Below, piece by piece: positions 26,229-60,110 of a DNA stretch of 64,000 nucleotides; position 1 is the stretch's first letter, and each line of letters starts with the position of its first letter. This DNA comes from an uncultured Chloroflexia bacterium (GTDB taxonomy: Bacteria > Chloroflexota > Limnocylindria > Limnocylindrales > CSP1-4). A program made the translations under genes and the position numbers. Under the pieces are notes generated by a model, which saw only the letters and a program-made list of their open reading frames with translations, was not told where the DNA came from and did no database searches. Where the stretch lies: assembly GCA_963768655.1 (NCBI GenBank), contig CAVYIM010000006.1, positions 1 to 64,000 on the forward strand. Reading direction: 5' to 3'.

Positions 26229-26597
26229 GGCGAGTCGGCCGGACGATCGCGCGCATCCGGCTTCGGTCGGGGACGCGAGGAAAGTCCGAGCTCCTCAGCG
26301 CAGGGTAGCGGGTAACGCCCGTCCGCCGTGAGGCGAGGACCAGTGCCACAGAGACGTAGCCGGGCTCGGGGTGACCCGAGAGCGGTAGGTGAAACGCGGC
26401 AAACTCTGCTCGGAGCAAGGCCAAATAGGAGGACGCGGTTCGAACGCTCGGGCAACCGGTCGATCGAACGGAAGAGGTCGCGCTGCCCAGTCCTCGGGTC
26501 GGCCGCTTGAGCCGTCGGGTAACCGGCGGCCAGAGATGGATGATCGTCGCCACGACGCAGGTCGCGGCACAGAACTCGGCTTACAGGCCGGCTCGCC
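26229..26597 (+). ncRNA. rnpB: RNase P RNA (type A)
   Basis: GAGGAAAGTCCGAGCTC, AGTGCCACAGA, GGTGAAACGCGGCAAACTC, GAGCAAGGCCAAATAGG, ACAGAACTCGGCTTAC; complementary ends; TAGAAT -10 at 26216-26221. Confidence 0.97.
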
Positions 26598-26654
26598 GCC
26601 ACTCTGTCAGCCGCCATACAGTCGGGTGAACGCGGCCCGGCGCTCAGACGCGCC

Positions 26655-51386: not shown

Positions 51387-51463
51387 GGGCGATTAGCTCA
51401 GCTGGTTAGAGCGCGCGGTTCACATCCGCGAGGTCACTGGTTCGAGTCCAGTATCGCCCACCA
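51387..51463 (+). tRNA. tRNA-Val(CAC)
   Basis: GGGCGAT/ATCGCCC acceptor, anticodon arm CGCGG-TTCACAT-CCGCG, GGTTCGAGTCC, encoded CCA; TATAAT -10 upstream. Confidence 0.97.
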
Positions 51464-51550: not shown

Positions 51551-52921
51551 CTACGCGGCCAACATTTCGGCTCGCGGACCGTTCGCCCAGAGCCGGCGGA
51601 GCAGCCTGGCAAGGGCGGCGCCGTGGACCGCCAGGGGCGCCGGATAGCTGAACGTGAGCGTCCGGCTGGAACCCCGCAGCGTGACGCGGGCGATGAGCGG
51701 CGACAGAACCATCCCCACGCTTCGCATCTCGCGAAGCGACAGCCGTTCGGGCCGCGGGCCGACCACGCCCACCTCATCAGGACTCAGCCACAGACCGAGG
51801 GGCTGGCGCTGGCCTTCCCGGCGGGGGCTGTAGACGAAGGCGAGCAACTCACCCGCCTCGCGCCGGGCTGCATCATGGAGCGCCTGAGCTTCGTCGAGCT
51901 GGCGAAAGCGCTCGGCTGTTTCCTCGACGAACTCGACGGCCTCGGTCACATAGACACGACGCAGCCGTTCGCGGTTGCGCTCGGGCAGGAAGCTCGATGC
52001 GAGGGACTCGAACACGCGGACCTCGGCCTCGAGCTCCACCGGAAGGGCCACGTTGTGCCGGCCTCCCCCCGTCTGGAGGACGAGCCGCAAGGCATCGCGT
52101 TCATCCTCCACCCGCACGCCCGTGAGTTGCTCGACGGGCACCATGTCGACGTCCACGCCCCAATCGAAGAGGTACGAATCCGGGTTCGTGTGGTCGACCA
52201 GCCACAGGACCTGGCGGTCGGTGAGGAGCAGGAGTCCGGAACGGTGGTCTCTTCCGCCGCGGACGCGGGTGAGAAGCCCGGCGTCCGAACGCCACGGCCG
52301 CTCGATCGAGTAGTGCAGGCGCTCGTCCGGATCGAGCATGCCTTCGAGCCCGCGCAGGAAGCGCGGCGGCAGTCGATCCAACGAACGTTCGGCCTGGCTG
52401 TAGACGCCGCCCGACCGGAGAGCCTCCTCGGACATGCCCTCGGGCGGTCGCCATGCCAGACCGCCCGTGATCCGGCCGCGTCCCCGACGCTCCCGGAACG
52501 CCCGTCTTGCCGCCGAGGCGTGCTCCGAAGCGCGCGCCGCGTCGATCCACTCGGCGTCCGGCGACACACGCCCGACCGCTCGCAGAACGGCGTCGACGGG
52601 GAGCGTGGCGCCCGGCAGACGAGCCACCAGGACGAGACCGGCAGCGTCCGAGAAACCGCCGGCTAGCTCGGCGTCGATGCGAGCCCCAACGAAGCTGGAC
52701 GCCGGAAGCACCACCAGAGCCGGCACCTCGCGGCCGTGGCCATCGTCGGAATCGACGAGGAACCCCCGGTCGGCGCCGAGCCACAGGCCGCCGGCTCGGG
52801 CGCCGCGCGCCACGATGCCACCACGCGCTAGGTCGCGTTCGTAGTCGAGGCCCGGGCCGAGTGCCTCCTCGACCTCGACCAGGAGGGTGTGGCGGGAGTG
52901 GCGCGCGTCGCGGGCGGTCAT
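51551..52921 (-). CDS. hypothetical protein: degenerate family-I pyrophosphatase-like N domain + PH-like C region
   Basis: LVEVE..DYE...ADRGFLVDSDDGHGREVPALVV..SSFVGARI....GGFSD echoes the PPase fold; GLLLLTDRQVLW; ATGA-coupled to the upstream gene. Confidence 0.6.
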   Translation of the reverse strand: MTARDARHSRHTLLVEVEEALGPGLDYERDLARGGIVARGARAGGLWLGADRGFLVDSDDGHGREVPALVVLPASSFVGARIDAELAGGFSDAAGLVLVARLPGATLPVDAVLRAVGRVSPDAEWIDAARASEHASAARRAFRERRGRGRITGGLAWRPPEGMSEEALRSGGVYSQAERSLDRLPPRFLRGLEGMLDPDERLHYSIERPWRSDAGLLTRVRGGRDHRSGLLLLTDRQVLWLVDHTNPDSYLFDWGVDVDMVPVEQLTGVRVEDERDALRLVLQTGGGRHNVALPVELEAEVRVFESLASSFLPERNRERLRRVYVTEAVEFVEETAERFRQLDEAQALHDAARREAGELLAFVYSPRREGQRQPLGLWLSPDEVGVVGPRPERLSLREMRSVGMVLSPLIARVTLRGSSRTLTFSYPAPLAVHGAALARLLRRLWANGPRAEMLAA

Positions 52922-54306
52922 TGCGCGCTCCGGTGATGCGGCACGGCCCGAGCCGCTCTCCGCAGCTGCCGCCAGCGACCGATCGCGCGAGCCGTTTCTC
53001 GCTCGCTGATCGCCGCCCGCCCGTAGACCGCCAGTTCGTAGTCCGCGGCGAGCAGCCCGAGCGGCAGGCGCGGGAGCCCGAGTGTCCCTGTGCGCGCGGC
53101 GTGGACTTGGGGCGTCTCGGCCGGTCGCCGTCCCAGCTCGCCACGGCCGGCGAGCTCGTCCAGGAGCGCGAGGTACGCCTCCGGGGCCGTCGCTGGACGC
53201 CGCGGCAGGGCTGCGCGAGGATGGATGGCGAGGCGCGGCAGGTGGAGGTTCAAGCTCGGCGGGTGGACTTCCCTGCGGCGCTCCTCGCGTGGGGGCGTGG
53301 CGACCTTCGGTTCAGGCCGACTGACGGCGAACCTGCGGAATCCGACGGCCAGCAGCACGATGACGGCGACGACACCGGCCACCACCAGCCAGCCGAGGGG
53401 CAGCGAGCCCCCGGGCACGGGTCCGCCGAGTGACGACACAGTGTGCGGGCCGCCGGAGCTCCCGGCGGCGGTCCCGGTCGTGGGAACGCTTCCACCTGTG
53501 CCGAAAAGGGAAGGCAGATGTATGCCGTTGAGCACCTGCCCGATCGCGGCCGCCAGCGCGACGAGAAGACCGCCGAGCGGTGCGAGCAGCAGGCCGATCG
53601 CACCACCGACCGGGCCGCCGATCGCAGTCAGCCCGTCCCGGGCGGAGGTCCCGCTCAAGATCGCGATCGGGATCCCCAGAGCCGCGACCACGACCACTAC
53701 GCCGGTCGAGACCATCGCCCAGGTGCGCCCGCCACGGCTTTCCGAGCCGAGTAGCTCGAGCTCCCGCAGGCGAGCGTGGCCGATCGCGAGCAACCCAGCC
53801 GCCACGCAGACCGCCGACCCGACGAGGGCCGGCCCAACGAAGGGGCCGGAGGATCGAAGGTGGGGCAACCACGAGGCGGCCAGCACCGGGAACGCATACG
53901 CGAGCGCCCGGGTCGAGGTTTCGATCTCGTCGTCCGCGTGCTCGTGGGCTGCGCCTCGAAGAACCGCGACGCCGAGCAGCCAGCCTGCGGGGTGAACGAG
54001 GAGGGCGCTCAGCGGGTTGTCCAGGGCCGCGAGGGTCGTCCGGGCCGCCGGATCGACGAGCCACCCGAGAGCGCCGGCAAGCACGGCGAGAGCCGCGATC
54101 CACGGCACCCGCGGCGTTGATCGAGGGCGCAGGCGAGCCCAGACGAGCCCGGCCACGGCCGCCGGGCAGAACTCGACGAGTGACAGCGGTGCGCTCGAGC
54201 TCGCGCCCAGGAGCGCGATGGCGGCGTACGCGACGCCTACGAGGCTGCCTTCGAGCAGGCCGTCGAGGGCAAGAGGCAGAAGATCAGCTCGCCAGGACCA
54301 ACGCAT
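52918..54306 (-). CDS. multi-pass membrane protein with C-terminal DUF4129 domain
   Basis: Many TM segments; AYLALL..L...G..RRPAETP..HA...LAADYELAVYG. Confidence 0.8.
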   Translation of the reverse strand: MRWSWRADLLPLALDGLLEGSLVGVAYAAIALLGASSSAPLSLVEFCPAAVAGLVWARLRPRSTPRVPWIAALAVLAGALGWLVDPAARTTLAALDNPLSALLVHPAGWLLGVAVLRGAAHEHADDEIETSTRALAYAFPVLAASWLPHLRSSGPFVGPALVGSAVCVAAGLLAIGHARLRELELLGSESRGGRTWAMVSTGVVVVVAALGIPIAILSGTSARDGLTAIGGPVGGAIGLLLAPLGGLLVALAAAIGQVLNGIHLPSLFGTGGSVPTTGTAAGSSGGPHTVSSLGGPVPGGSLPLGWLVVAGVVAVIVLLAVGFRRFAVSRPEPKVATPPREERRREVHPPSLNLHLPRLAIHPRAALPRRPATAPEAYLALLDELAGRGELGRRPAETPQVHAARTGTLGLPRLPLGLLAADYELAVYGRAAISERETARAIGRWRQLRRAARAVPHHRSAQ

Positions 54307-55519
54307 CGCTCGTCCGCCAGTCCGGGGCCAGAGACCCGCTCGTCGCGGTCAGTCCGACCGCCCGCGCCGCCGCCACGGCACGCGGGCCGTCCGCGCCGAG
54401 CCCAACGAATTGCACCGGATGGCCCGACCGGTCGAGCCGGGTGAGAGAGGTGAGGTAAGGCGCCGGGTCGCGGGCGGCGAGCACGATCACGGTCGTGCCC
54501 GGCGGGATCGTCCACGGCAGCCGGGCGATGAGCCGCTCGAACGGCGCCGAAGGGACCTCGCTCAGGCGCCCCAGCAGGTCGGTGATGGCGGCCAGCTGGT
54601 CGCGGCCGGCTCGAGGCGCGACGAGGGCGAACCGATCGACCGTCCGGCTGAACGCAGCCGCGGCAAGCCCGCACGACGCACCCTGGGCGAGGGCGTGGCG
54701 CGCCAGCGACGCCGCCGCGACCATCAGGCTCTCGACGAGTTCTTCGTCGAAATGGAGCGTCCAGTGCGGGCCCGGCATCGTCTGCACGTCGAGCGCGATG
54801 AGGACCTCACGCGCCCGCGATGGGTCGAACCGCTTGCTCACCGCCGCCCCCGTCCTGGCCGTCGCCCGCCAGTGAACGCGTCGCAACGGATCGCCAGGCT
54901 GATACGGGCGGACACCGGCGAAGAGAGCCGGGTCTTCGAACAGGCTTCGCTGGGCGGGCAGGAATCCGAGTGGCAGGCGCTGCGGGCTGGCGATCCGCAC
55001 GGGCACGCTGCGCGGCCGGACGATGTACGTGGCGCGGTCTTCGTGCTCCTCGGTCGCGGCCCCGCGCCCGAACAGGTCGGCGACCGTGACCTGGACGGGG
55101 CCGAAGGAGTAGACGCCGCGGTGGTCCGCGGCGATCGTGAGGTGGCGCACGACGCGCTCGTACCAGCCTACGGTCCAGCGACTGCGCAGAACGGTGAATC
55201 CCGGTCGGTCGCTCCGCGCGAGCGGTTCGTCGCGCACCACGGCGCCCTGCGTCGCAAAGTCATCGATCGACAGCCAGGCCAGCGGCAGGGGTTTGTCGTT
55301 CCAGACGGCGATGTCGAGCGGTACTTCGTCGCCCCACACCGCCCGGTCACGGCCGATCCGCCTCTCGTAGTGGAGGTCGCGCAGGCCGTAGCGGGTCCAC
55401 AGCTCTGTTACGCCGGTGGTGAAGAGTGCGAGGAGCCCCACGAGCACGAGCCCCGGCGCCGCCGCGACGGCGCCGGCTGCCACCATGGCGAGGCCGAAGG
55501 CGAGTCCCCAGCGGGTCAT
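54284..55519 (-). CDS. DUF58 (vWA-like) protein
   Basis: RGVYSFGPV...DLFG, GVRPYQPGDPLRRVHWRATARTG. Confidence 0.9.
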   Translation of the reverse strand: MTRWGLAFGLAMVAAGAVAAAPGLVLVGLLALFTTGVTELWTRYGLRDLHYERRIGRDRAVWGDEVPLDIAVWNDKPLPLAWLSIDDFATQGAVVRDEPLARSDRPGFTVLRSRWTVGWYERVVRHLTIAADHRGVYSFGPVQVTVADLFGRGAATEEHEDRATYIVRPRSVPVRIASPQRLPLGFLPAQRSLFEDPALFAGVRPYQPGDPLRRVHWRATARTGAAVSKRFDPSRAREVLIALDVQTMPGPHWTLHFDEELVESLMVAAASLARHALAQGASCGLAAAAFSRTVDRFALVAPRAGRDQLAAITDLLGRLSEVPSAPFERLIARLPWTIPPGTTVIVLAARDPAPYLTSLTRLDRSGHPVQFVGLGADGPRAVAAARAVGLTATSGSLAPDWRTSDALVLAS

Positions 55520-56520
55520 CGCTCGCGCACCGGCACCGGCACCGACGCAAGCACCTCGGCCAGCACCCGCTCGATGGTCGCGCCGCGGAGCTGGCGGTCC
55601 ACGTCGAGCAGGAGGCGGTGGCCCAGCACCGGGCCCACGACGGCGGCCACGTCGTCGGGCAGGATGAAGGCCCGGCCCTCGAGCGCTGCCCATGCCTGGC
55701 TCGCCCGGAACAGGGCCACGCTCGTCCGCGGGCTCGCCCCAAGGCGCAGATCGTCGTGCTCGCGCGTAGCCCGGACCAGGTCGACGGCATAGCCTTCGAC
55801 GGCATCGCTCACGACGATCTCGCTCACGGCCCGCCGCAGCGCGAGCAACGTGTCGCGATCGACGATCGGCGTGATCCGGTCGAGCGGCTCGTCGCCGCCT
55901 TGATAGCGCCGGGCGATGCGCCGCTCGTCGTCCCGGCTCGGGTAGCCCAGGGTCACGCGCAGCAGGAATCGGTCGAGCTGGGCTTCGGGCAGCGAGAAGG
56001 TTCCCTCCAGCTCGATGGGGTTCTGCGTGGCGACGACGAGGAAGGGCGCGGGCAGCGGCCGGGTTTCGCCCTCGATCGAGACCTGGCGCTCCTGCATCGC
56101 CTCCAGGAGCGCGGACTGGGTCCGCGGCGTGGCGCGGTTGATCTCGTCGACGAGCAGGACGTTGGCGAAGACCGGACCCGGCAGGAAGCGCAGACGTCCG
56201 GCTTCGAGAATGCTCGAACCGGTTACGTCGGTTGGCAGCAGGTCGGGCGTCCCCTGGATCCGGCCGAAGGACAGGCCCAGGGATTGCGCGAAGGCGCGCG
56301 CCAGCAGTGTCTTGCCGACCCCGGGAACGTCCTCGATCAGGGCGTGACCGTCGGCGAGCAGGGCAACGGCAAGGAGACGCAGCGCCGGCTCGTCGCTCAC
56401 GACCGCGACGGCGACGGCATCGCGCAGGTCGTGCCAGAAGCGGCCGACGCGCGCCTGACCGGAACTCGGATGCCCGGCGGCAGGCGTGGCCTCTGTCTCG
56501 AGCGGCTCCGTGGCGCTCAT
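55516..56520 (-). CDS. MoxR-family AAA+ ATPase
   Basis: [61 protein letters not shown]. Confidence 0.95.
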
Positions 56521-57062
56521 CGTTCCCCGCCGGGAGCGGTCGTGTCTGCGGGATCTGCCGCCCTCGGATCTGCCGCCCTCGGATCTGCCGCCCTCGGATC
56601 TGCCGCCCTCGAGGTGTCCGCCGGCGGATTGTCCGCCCGGGCGCCGAGTCGCTCGATCGCGCGTTCGAGCAGCTGCCGGTCGGCATCGTGCGTTAGCATC
56701 CGCAGTCCCTCCTCCAGGCTCACGAACCTCGCCTCGGCGAAGATCGGCTCGTGCTCGATCTCGCCGCCGACGCGGTGGGCGAGGAACCAGTCGACCTGCT
56801 TGCGGTTCGCCGTGCCGTTGTGGCTCTTGAACTGGTATCGCGTTGACCCAAGCGCGTCATCCAGCGCGATCTCGACGCCCGTCTCTTCGCGGACCTCGCG
56901 GCGGGCGGCAGCTTCGGGCGCCTCGTTTCGCTCGAGGTGGCCCTTCGGGAACGCCCACTCGTGCCCGCGCCGGATGAGGAGACACCTCCCCTCGTCGACT
57001 ACCACCGCACCCGCCGAGTGGTGGAACACGAGTCGAGATCGAGATGAGACGATCGAGCTCAT
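56517..57062 (-). CDS. NUDIX hydrolase (Ap4A-hydrolase-like)
   Basis: [33 protein letters not shown] Nudix box; GGAGG RBS before ATG 57062. Confidence 0.9.
56551..56610. repeat. 15-bp tandem repeat x4 in the NUDIX C-terminus (RAADP)
   Basis: GGATCTGCCGCCCTC x4. Confidence 0.95.
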
Positions 57063-57080
57063 GGCTCGGCCTCCGCAATG

Positions 57081-57111
57081 AAAAAGGCTCCCGGACTGCG
57101 GTCCAGAAGCC
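57081..57111 (-). terminator. intrinsic terminator, riboswitch expression platform
   Basis: GGCUUCUGGAC-CGCA-GUCCGGGAGCC followed by UUUUU; 5' arm overlaps the aptamer pseudoknot strand. Confidence 0.85.
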
Positions 57112-57151
57112 ATCACCCGTCGACCGGGAAACTGCGCGAGCTTCATCGCGC
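57105..57151 (-). promoter_or_regulatory. fluoride riboswitch (crcB motif) #2
   Basis: GCGC-GAUGAAGCUC-GCGC ... CCCG..CGGG-UGAUGGCUUCU; GAAGCU/GGCUUC pseudoknot; TAGCAT -10 at 57167-57172. Confidence 0.85.
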
Positions 57152-57192
57152 GTTCAACTAACCGACATGCTACCGCGTCCCGGCCTGGCTGG

Positions 57193-58011
57193 CTAATCGT
57201 GTGGTTCGGTGTGGCTCGTGGCCCGATCCGTACCCTGGCCGTGCCCGTGCCCGTGCCCGTGCCCGTGGCCGTGGCGCCACTCCCAACCTTCGCGCCCGCC
57301 GAGCACTTCGGTCGCCTGCGAGGCGGAGACGTGCTGCTCATGGGTCAGGCGATGCTGGCGGTCGTAGGTGCTGTCGTGCGCGTAAGCCTCAAGCGATGCC
57401 CGAAGCTCCGCCAGCCGCTCGAGCTGTCGGTCCAGGACGGGCCGGACGCTCGCCAGCCGCTTCTCGTCGGCGGAGGCCGCCCGGGCCAACAGGACGATGT
57501 CCGGAAGGCACAGCGGCGCGCGGGCGAGCGCCTCACGCCAGCGCGCGCTGTCGAGGCGATGGAGCAGTCGCTCGATGGCGCGCTCGACCGCGTCGTCTTC
57601 GGCGGCACAGGCAGGGCAGTCGGACGCCGCGGCCGCCCGGTCGAGCTGGCGCGCACTCGTTCGACCCGGCTCGGCGTTCGCGTCGGCCAGCCGCTCGATC
57701 CGCTGGCGCAGCACCGACTCGAGGAGAATGGCGGCGCCGAGCGTGCCGCCCATCTCTTCGCGATCTGCCTCGAACAACCCGACGGTGTGGCGCCCGCAGA
57801 AGCCGCGCGACCTCTCCAGCACGCGCCGAAACCCTACGTCATTGACGCCTTCGTTGACGAGCGACCGGAGGAAGCGCCGGCCCTGGGCGACCCGGTGGCG
57901 GCACAGCGGGCAGCCGGCCTCGAACAACTCCTCGGATAGGCCGATGTCGACGTTGTCGTGCGCTTCAAGCTCCGCTGCCTTGCGACTCGCCTCGGTGTCG
58001 CGGCGGGCCAT
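57193..58011 (-). CDS. DUF6062-like Cys-motif protein (copy 2) with HG-repeat tail
   Basis: GCPLC, GFCGRH, CPAC, LCLPD; tail [10 protein letters not shown]. Confidence 0.72.
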
Positions 58012-58012
58012 C

Positions 58013-58516
58013 TCAGGCCTCTCCGTCAAGGGCCGGGCCGGCGGGCGGTTCCACGAGCGAGGCTGAGGCCACGCCGTCCGGCGATCCCGAAACCGGCCCG
58101 TTCGCCTCCAGGCCGACGTCTTCGAGGGCGGAGACGAGCTCCATCAGCCGCTCGACCGCCGGATCGAGCGTGGCGCGCAGGGCCGGGTCCACGTGACCGT
58201 AGGCTCGAAGACGGCGACTCTTGACCTCGGCCAGGCTCTCCCAGGAAACCCTCATTAGCCCGGCGATCTCGCGGGCAGAGTCGCGCTGTTGGATGGCGAG
58301 ATGGAACGCCTGGGAAACCGACGCGATCGTCGAGCGCAAGTCGGCCAGCGTCGTGTCGACGCGCGCTCGCTCTTCGCGCGACCAGGCCGGCCGAAGGCGG
58401 TGGTACAGGAGGCCGTCCTCGTCGCGGTCGAGCAGCTCCTCCACGCGGGCCAGGCGCTCCTCGAGCAGCCTGAGCGCCACGCTCACGGCGCGCTCCTGGT
58501 CGGGATTGAGGCTCAC
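58013..58516 (-). CDS. hypothetical helical protein
   Basis: LNPDQERAV..L..LEERL...W..L.E....RLRAYGHV; between eno and DUF6062. Confidence 0.75.
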   Translation of the reverse strand: MSLNPDQERAVSVALRLLEERLARVEELLDRDEDGLLYHRLRPAWSREERARVDTTLADLRSTIASVSQAFHLAIQQRDSAREIAGLMRVSWESLAEVKSRRLRAYGHVDPALRATLDPAVERLMELVSALEDVGLEANGPVSGSPDGVASASLVEPPAGPALDGEA

Positions 58517-58574: not shown

Positions 58575-59885
<1,311 letters not shown>

Positions 59886-60008
59886 TCAGCCTTTCCGCCG
59901 GCGGCTGGCCGGCCAACTCTGAGCGTGCCGGCGCCGAGCCAGTGTCGGAGTTTGGGGGAAGATCCGCGAAGGACCATGCTGGCTCCGGCTGCGGGTTGCT
60001 TCACGAGA

Positions 60009-60080
60009 AGAAGCTGTCATCGGCCGAGCCGCGGTTCGCCGGCCCCGGTCTTGGGAGGTCGGCTGGCGAGCCTCATCGCC
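60009..60080 (-). promoter_or_regulatory. fluoride riboswitch (crcB motif) #1, upstream of eno
   Basis: GGC-GAUGAGGCUC-GCC ... UGAC-AGCUUCU; GAGGCU/AGCUUC pseudoknot; TACAAT -10 at 60087-60092; competing GCUUC/GAAGC hairpin. Confidence 0.7.
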
Positions 60081-60110
60081 GCCGCCATTGTAGCCGCAAT
60101 GCCGGCTTGA

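Follow-up and report, generated by a model that had tools for sequence, protein, structure and literature searches.

Does the short gap upstream of a NUDIX hydrolase gene in an uncultured Chloroflexota genome hold a fluoride switch and, if so, what does it control? In the 64,000-nt stretch of DNA analysed here (the window), 130 nt of the minus strand separate the stop codon of a DUF6062 gene (57193) from the NUDIX ATG (57062), and this gap contains the whole of a leader element that had been predicted, from the letters, to be a compact fluoride riboswitch with a complete transcriptional ON switch. Our results put at roughly 80% the probability that the element is a divergent fluoride riboswitch that acts by anti-termination as an ON switch and drives a NUDIX-MoxR-DUF58-DUF4129 operon. 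This assessment draws on the observed anatomy of the leader and the order of the genes behind it, on how the leader is conserved and covaries, and on the fact that the pseudoknot and the terminator cannot form together.

Anatomy of the leader element

All of the elements listed by the original prediction for the minus strand between 57172 and 57081 are there:

57167–57172, minus strand: −10-like promoter box TAGCAT, read from the sequence; the transcription start associated with it is predicted
57134–57151, minus strand: stem P1, 57151-57147 paired with 57138-57134 around the 8-nt loop AUGAAGCU (57146-57139); RF01734 positions 10-25 by alignment
57129–57133, minus strand: linker AGUUU, where the RF01734 consensus has ..AACC (sequence and Rfam alignment)
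57116–57128, minus strand: stem P2, CCCG / loop GUCGA / CGGG, 57128-57125 paired with 57119-57116 (4 bp), read from the sequence; this is the CCCG/CGGG hairpin of the original prediction
57105–57115, minus strand: 3′ tail UGAUGGCUUCU (sequence and Rfam alignment)
57081–57111, minus strand: intrinsic terminator, an 11-bp hairpin (57111-57086) followed by U5 (57085-57081), from a terminator scan; fold energy −18.4 kcal/mol
57060–57073, minus strand: ribosome binding site GGAGG (57073-57069) and NUDIX ATG (57062-57060), read from the sequence and kept in the NUDIX-type copies described below

The fluoride riboswitch fold consists of two stems, a pseudoknot and two long-range A-U pairs, a reversed Watson-Crick and a reversed Hoogsteen pair (A6-U38 and A40-U48 in Thermotoga petrophila numbering), and holds fluoride through three Mg2+ ions on backbone phosphates, with the A40-U48 pair as the linchpin (available parts of PMC11586693 and PMC8752731). 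The window element has the corresponding parts. The P1 loop begins with AUG and is preceded by G, which is the stem-1 feature of RF01734 (57151-57134), and both conserved blocks, GAUG and UGAUG...CU, occur. A pseudoknot is formed by the 5′ strand in the P1 loop (57144-57139) and the 3′ strand in the tail (57111-57106), with 6/6 pairs, one of them U-G. At the positions matching the long-range A-U pairs stand A57146, U57115, A57113 and U57105, an observation on the presence of the bases. The consensus end CCUAC becomes CUUCUGG in the RF01734 alignment.

The 5′ arm of the terminator (57111-57101) includes the entire 3′ strand of the pseudoknot, as the original prediction had proposed for an 11-bp terminator ending in UUUUU, and pseudoknot and terminator are therefore mutually exclusive. 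The terminator stem has 7/11 G-C pairs and a loop of 4, is followed by TTTTT, and is the sole site found between 56800 and 57500, compared with a mean of 0.3 sites when shuffled sequence is put through the same scan. The distance from the end of the U run (57081) to the NUDIX ATG, anticipated at about 18 nt, is exactly 18 nt. For crcB RNAs, terminators that reach into the 3′ part of the motif are described in the part of PMC2864571 that was available.

These features suggest the following mechanism. Transcription probably begins a few bases past TAGCAT, and the nascent leader would fold P1 and P2. With Mg2+ and fluoride, the predicted ligand, the P1 loop and the 3′ tail would lock as the 6-bp pseudoknot, capped by a long-range A-U pair; this would keep 57111-57106 from pairing with 57096-57086, so that the terminator would not form and RNA polymerase would continue. 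When fluoride is absent the pseudoknot would be transient, the 11-bp hairpin would form and transcription would end in the U run, with 18 nt still to go to the start codon. Read-through, the predicted direction of the response, would yield the coupled operon of an ApnA-hydrolase-like NUDIX protein, a MoxR AAA+ ATPase, a DUF58 protein, a DUF4129 protein and one further ORF.

Significance of the fold and the Rfam match

A sequence-neutral descriptor (a 5-bp stem with an 8-nt loop starting AUG and, 8-70 nt later, UGAUG-N5-U with 6/6 loop pairs) matched once, at the window site, on both strands of the 3,368,982-base genome, and had 0 matches in each of five first-order Markov genomes. The element is more than chance. 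The minimum free energy of a 126-nt fold is ordinary (z = −1.39), which is to be expected since such a fold cannot include the pseudoknot.

At Rfam gathering thresholds, the whole window gave an RNase P RNA and one tRNA only. When the 66-nt stretch was searched by itself, RF01734 was the best Rfam family (14.6 bits, E 0.027), below its gathering cut-off of 34 bits, and the alignment spans the full model (1-64) with the linker and P2 of the window copy skipped. The window site went unreported by RF01734 when 351 nt (E-value mode) or the whole genome was searched. The top RF01734 match in the genome is another element, at 60004-60089, which precedes an enolase gene and scores 20 bits.

These scores bear on whether the leader could belong to a different class of riboswitch linked to NUDIX genes (for example ykkC subtype 2c, which senses nucleoside diphosphates) or be a chance or coding feature, which we consider extremely improbable. 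RNAs of ykkC subtype 2c are known to target NUDIX genes according to the available part of PMC7266159, and the two share the placement of a riboswitch before a NUDIX hydrolase gene; however, the architecture of subtype 2c is unrelated, and the Rfam scans detected neither sequence nor structural similarity to it. On local stretches, at E values up to 10, neither ykkC nor any other riboswitch family was matched, the remaining hits of 9-16 bits being noise. A chance origin is opposed by the descriptor counts given above. A coding origin would find formal support in an ATG-started ORF (57341..56517) that covers the region, but the copies of the element in related genomes differ by 1- and 2-nt indels in the linker and the P2 loop, which excludes coding. 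The ykkC-type and coding readings were accordingly rejected, the former for lack of an Rfam match and the latter for these indels.

Copies in related genomes

In total 33 copies of the element were found, the window copy and 32 more, in two families of the same uncultured Chloroflexota class. A blastn search with a 116-nt leader query gave 19 places at E ≤1e-6 in 13/51 genus genomes. These 19 aptamers were made into a covariance model, which found 14 places at ≥46 bits in 11/151 genomes of the family; the model also brought in more copies from the second family of the class. The count of 33 leaves out matches below 46 bits, and the overall model tallies of 115/151 genomes (family) and 34/151 (second family) are mostly weak-match noise. 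Inspection of 19 loci scoring 21.7-26.8 bits gave three canonical fluoride switches and one of the enolase type, the rest resembling unrelated G+C-rich sequence. Among 151 genomes drawn from the phylum, no match above 39 bits lay outside the class. A second match in one genome (G069, locus L088, 31.7 bits) was dropped, having no core motif.

Across the 33 copies there is almost no variation in the stem-1 loop, the P2 core or the tail, while the linker (3-11 nt) has no fixed sequence and the P2 loop differs by 1- and 2-nt indels. Among the 19 genus copies the outermost P1 pair is GC in 12, GU in 4 and AU in 2; the four core pairs of P2 are invariant, its loop differs in length as well as sequence, 17/19 copies have a fifth pair, and the six pseudoknot pairs show no variation. 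Over all 33, the pseudoknot has a single one-sided change (G for A at position 10, in 2 copies).

The expression platform is conserved as well. In 33/33 copies the first pseudoknot base is also the first base of a hairpin (10-12 bp, −16 to −22 kcal/mol), which is followed in 32/33 by a U-rich tail (at least 5 U within the next 10 nt), and its distal stem changes between copies yet stays paired (GGAC/GUCC, AGAG/CUCU, GGUC/GACC). The TAGCAT box, named as a −10 element by the original prediction and located at 57172-57167, has counterparts: a TANNNT box lies between −32 and −9 of P1 in 23/33 copies, compared with 119/6600 background windows (1.8%), and at −21 in 13/13 NUDIX/MoxR-type copies of the genus. 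A sigma-70 consensus scan at the element returned no full promoter, and it is this conservation that supports the putative −10 box. A look for RNA sequencing runs containing the stretch gave none.

Relation to accepted fluoride switches

An alignment of the 33 copies with 10 canonical switches of the class (43 sequences) has 98.3% of P1 and pseudoknot cells paired (P1 98.1%, pseudoknot 98.4%), whereas sliding the partners by 1-3 columns left 34-52% paired. Changes on both sides occur in 5/11 pairs (3/5 in P1 and 2/6 in the pseudoknot); pseudoknot pair 9-46 is AU in 36 and GC in 6 sequences, and pair 10-45 is AU in 33, GU in 4 and GC in 3. The covariation score was reached by 0/500 shuffles. 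The sequences are related, the two groups are defined by sequence, and the pseudoknot covariation arises only versus the canonical switches; within these bounds the covariation supports, short of proof, a fold shared with the canonical switches. The columns of the long-range A-U pairs are invariant in this alignment, which concerns the bases and not the pairs themselves.

Compared with RF01734 switches such as that of Bacillus cereus crcB and the T. petrophila aptamer, the window element has the same two stems, the same pseudoknot between P1 loop and tail, the GAUG and UGAUG blocks, both partners of each long-range A-U pair, and a terminator with the pseudoknot strand as its 5′ arm. It differs in its P1 (GCGCG/CGCGC), in P2 (CCCG/CGGG, consensus GCCc/gGGC), in the linker (AGUUU, consensus ..AACC), in the end (CUGG, consensus CUAC) and in the genes downstream, which are NUDIX-MoxR-DUF58-DUF4129 with no exporter. 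The four canonical switches of the genus (L008-L011, 41-46 bits) share with the element the UGAUGGCU.CUGG tail, a terminator on it and the upstream TANNNT box. They differ in having an additional hairpin and GAACC in the linker, in a pseudoknot that has, with one mismatch, G-C where the window element has A-U, and in standing before crcB or a Na+/H+ exchanger gene rather than NUDIX. The departure from CUAC to which the original prediction drew attention is real, the end reading CUGG here, but this copy is no exception: CUGG is usual in the genus, even in the 44-46-bit switches before crcB, and the CUGG end is on these alignments a lineage trait.

Intermediates link the subtype to accepted members of the family. 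One copy within the subtype clade (G121b) has a CAAACC linker, scores 30.7 bits on RF01734 and has its P2 aligned by Rfam. In another Chloroflexota genome, a 40.9-bit RF01734 switch (L119), 15 nt before a CrcB gene, has the linker AAUUU, nearly identical to the AGUUU of the window, so that the lack of AACC is no bar to family membership. As judged from the alignments, the element probably belongs to the fluoride riboswitch family, divergent in sequence but grading into accepted members through such intermediates. The transcriptional ON-type reading of the original prediction, with fluoride as the predicted ligand, is supported by RF01734 as best Rfam family, by the hairpins in 33/33 copies, by the covariation of P1 and pseudoknot, and by the MutS-like genes behind some of the copies.

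Genes controlled by the element

The element lies downstream of enolase and DUF6062 genes and upstream of the following genes:

56517–57062, minus strand: NUDIX hydrolase, 181 aa, most like ApnA hydrolases (Pfam NUDIX, E 2.6e-21)
55516–56520, minus strand: MoxR-type AAA+ ATPase, its ATG overlapping the NUDIX stop (ATGA) (Pfam AAA_3, E 7.6e-58)
54284–55519, minus strand: DUF58 gene, its ATG overlapping the MoxR stop (ATGA) (Pfam DUF58, E 6.7e-11)
52918–54306, minus strand: gene for a DUF4129-domain protein, overlapping the end of the DUF58 gene by 23 nt (sequence and Pfam)
51551–52921, minus strand: 456-aa ORF without a Pfam match, overlapping the DUF4129 gene by 4 nt (sequence and Pfam)

Since start and stop codons overlap at every junction, the NUDIX, MoxR, DUF58 and DUF4129 genes and the 456-aa ORF make up one operon. 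The original prediction placed the switch before a NUDIX gene; this gene does come first, but the unit is not NUDIX alone, the gene overlaps indicating a translationally coupled NUDIX-MoxR-DUF58-DUF4129 operon.

The best solved relative of the NUDIX protein is the Ap4A hydrolase 3i7u (E 1.4e-15), and its nearest structures are Ap4A and Ap6A hydrolases. For enolase under a fluoride switch, the accepted rationale is an extra supply of an enzyme that fluoride inhibits. The rationale for NUDIX is likely the same, more of a fluoride-inhibited enzyme, since many Nudix hydrolases are fluoride-sensitive and the window NUDIX is closest to Ap4A hydrolase. Strong inhibition by fluoride is described for many Nudix hydrolases, a plant Ap4A hydrolase having an IC50 of 3 uM, in the available part of PMC2248764.

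The first genes behind the 33 copies are as follows:

NUDIX: 12 copies
MutS-like: 8 copies (6 Pfam-tested as MutS_V)
MoxR: 4 copies
Small protein without a Pfam match: 3 copies
MFS transporter: 2 copies
244-253-aa protein of no known kind: 2 copies
466-aa protein of no known kind: 1 copy

The remaining copy (G170b) has no first-gene assignment, and two of the MutS-like genes are so called by N-terminal similarity only, the locus ending early in one (G047c) and the frame closing after 186 aa in the other (G024c). NUDIX is followed by MoxR in 6 loci, the window included, while MoxR comes first in 4 loci, and in one genome (G024) NUDIX and MoxR each stand behind a copy of their own. On this gene order, NUDIX and MoxR are linked to the switch independently of one another. 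In the same genome the NUDIX gene behind one copy is frameshifted, and one copy is clustered with a 44-bit switch, crcB, DUF190-CBS, enolase and DUF6062 genes. Elsewhere in the phylum, the subtype covariance model picked out fluoride-like elements before MoxR and MutS-like genes, and mutS is a published gene association of the crcB motif (PMC2864571, available part). Overall, this gene context may fit a fluoride response. A link between a fluoride riboswitch and NUDIX or MoxR was not found in the literature searched, where co-mentions were unrelated; the gene lists and supplements of Baker 2012, which fall outside the scope of that search, may list them.

Exporters, and the case for another ligand or a relic

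Directly behind the element, a crcB, CLC or riboswitch-linked Na+/H+ exchanger gene was found in 0/33 copies. In the genome of the window, which is 88.6% complete, neither CrcB (with the CrcB family and the CrcB protein of a relative as queries) nor a homologue of the riboswitch-linked Na+/H+ exchanger was found, and a single CLC is present, 676 aa long, upstream of which no riboswitch was matched. Across the genus, CrcB occurs in 15/51 genomes and the Na+/H+ exchanger in 5/51; among the 13 genomes carrying the subtype, CrcB was found in only 2 and not in the other 11.

This distribution might suggest that fold and switch logic are unchanged but that the subtype has been retuned, or its ligand changed, so as to govern a separate set of non-exporter genes. 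In line with this, the four canonical switches of the genus precede crcB or the exchanger and no subtype copy does, CrcB is missing from the search results for 11 of the 13 carriers, and P1, P2 and the pseudoknot have an almost constant sequence peculiar to the subtype, which has no AACC. However, the positions tied to the fluoride site, GAUG, UGAUG and both A-U partners, are all kept (as judged against the available parts of PMC11586693 and PMC8752731). Furthermore, fluoride contacts backbone phosphates via Mg2+ and not the bases (PMC8752731, available part), and base changes elsewhere therefore offer no obvious path to a new ligand. The controlled genes are those expected for fluoride (the enolase neighbourhood, NUDIX, metallophosphoesterase, MutS-like and DUF6062 genes), the intermediates at 30.7 and 40.9 bits grade into accepted members, and the fluoride-like elements elsewhere in the phylum also precede MoxR and MutS-like genes. 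Nothing positive favours another ligand, though there may be room for a retuned or re-targeted subtype; taken as a whole, we judge this explanation improbable.

Alternatively, the leader might not respond to any ligand, being either an attenuator that acts constitutively or what remains of a fluoride riboswitch decaying since crcB was lost. A Rfam score under threshold, the failure to find known exporters in the 88.6%-complete genome, and the frameshifted NUDIX gene in G024 would all agree with this. A relic is not expected, however, to hold about 40 aptamer positions invariant in 33 copies, in two families and before at least 6 kinds of gene, nor to keep its promoter box and a terminator that changes sequence but stays paired. 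We thus regard a relic or attenuator as highly improbable, and a fluoride-responsive ON switch remains the preferred reading of the element.

Implications

The switch mechanism itself is textbook, and our understanding of it is unchanged by this element. The novelty is modest: a conserved subtype below the reporting threshold, new controlled genes, and few known exporters in the carriers. That CrcB was found in so few of them raises the question of how such soil and peat bacteria cope with fluoride. One answer, unlikely but consistent with the absence of a detected CrcB or riboswitch-linked exchanger in most genus carriers, is that the subtype marks an exporter-free fluoride response. If so, the switch would turn on spare or extra fluoride-sensitive phospho-enzymes, namely the ApnA-hydrolase-like NUDIX protein, a second enolase (through the sister element) and a metallophosphoesterase, together with the MoxR-DUF58-DUF4129 system and small proteins of no known kind. 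In the literature searched, no tie of MoxR-DUF58-DUF4129 or of the small proteins to fluoride was found. In a bolder form of the same idea, the subtype may have been retuned to a different threshold or ligand.

For the fluoride family more widely, the Rfam cut-off misses a whole conserved subtype of uncultured Chloroflexota, and annotation pipelines will therefore leave such leaders, and the genes they control, unmarked. Among these genes are candidate new parts of the fluoride response: an ApnA-hydrolase-like NUDIX enzyme, the MoxR-DUF58-DUF4129 system, a family of small proteins without Pfam matches, and an MFS transporter.

A second fluoride-like element upstream of enolase

The probable divergent fluoride riboswitch is accompanied in the window by a second, still more divergent element, which lies upstream of an enolase gene and is directly followed by a short reading frame recognized by eye.

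60004-60089, minus strand: fluoride-like (enolase-type) element
59879-59977, minus strand: 32-codon open reading frame directly downstream of the element
58575-59882: enolase gene

With 20 bits against RF01734, the Rfam fluoride riboswitch family, the enolase-type element is the top match across the whole genome, and elements like it scoring 18-22 bits are found in four related genomes (G001, G003, G011 and G024). Its linker, the stretch between P1 and P2, contains a long hairpin as well as GAACC, and where the fluoride riboswitch family has UGAUGG the element carries UGACAG, so that the loop U is able to pair with the A of this variant segment. No terminator was evident at the element. The start of the short reading frame is preceded at 7 nt by GGAG, its TGA overlaps the enolase ATG (ATGA), and comparison by eye shows that the GGAGCC..AUG start is kept in 4/5 related leaders; this frame could encode a leader peptide or act as a coupling ORF. 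Since the genome contains two enolase genes (G000:C3:622747-623619 and 58599-59462 of the window), the enolase behind the fluoride-like element is a second copy.

Gene neighborhood of the two leaders

Two further genes separate enolase from the switch, and repeats lie in the DUF6062 and NUDIX genes.

57193-58516, minus strand: contains both a 167-aa protein and a 278-aa DUF6062 protein
57228-57273: 6-bp repeat, 7.8 copies, encoding the His-Gly tail of the DUF6062 protein
56551-56611: perfect 15-bp tandem repeat, 4.1 copies, within the 3′-terminal part of the NUDIX gene

The 167-aa protein has no Pfam or NCBIfam match, and the DUF6062 assignment rests on 28.7 bits against a cut-off of 27. The 15-bp repeat adds a PRAAD-type repeat to the NUDIX protein, which accounts for its length of 181 aa in the window versus ∼151 aa in relatives.

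In G024, three fluoride-type leaders are found within one 8-kb cluster (locus L018, G024:C3:497000-509000). The first is an enolase-type element followed by enolase and a HEAT protein; the second is a canonical switch (44 bits) followed by crcB, whose Pfam match falls in two pieces, one containing an in-frame TGA, and by DUF190-CBS; the third, a copy of the divergent subtype, is located after DUF6062 and precedes a frameshifted NUDIX gene. The crcB-DUF190 pair of this genome also has a DUF6062 gene after it.

A known fluoride exporter was not found in the assemblies of many genus members among the 51 genomes searched: CrcB is present in only 15 (6/20 of the high-quality ones), and a riboswitch-linked Na+/H+ exchanger was detected in five. 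In three genomes the first gene after the switch encodes a member of a small-protein family.

L050:1575-1988: small-protein family member
L058:1622-1951: small-protein family member
L085:2135-2437: small-protein family member

The members have repeated QWAG motifs and share a glycine-rich C-terminal block; Pfam, run on two of the three proteins, and NCBIfam, run on one, returned no match. The next gene in G047 encodes a metallophosphoesterase.

A possible alternative helix in the main leader

Two other RNAs were identified in the window, the second just past the operon end.

26231-26599: bacterial RNase P RNA class A (189 bits)
51387-51460: tRNA (69 bits)

In the minimum-free-energy fold of the main leader, the GAAC preceding P1, the first stem, pairs with the linker GUUU with one A bulged (57129-57157, minus strand), lengthening P1 by four pairs. 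NUDIX/MoxR-type copies within the genus retain the 5′ partner GAAC; MutS-type copies do not. This GAAC/GUUU helix could be a competing OFF-state helix.
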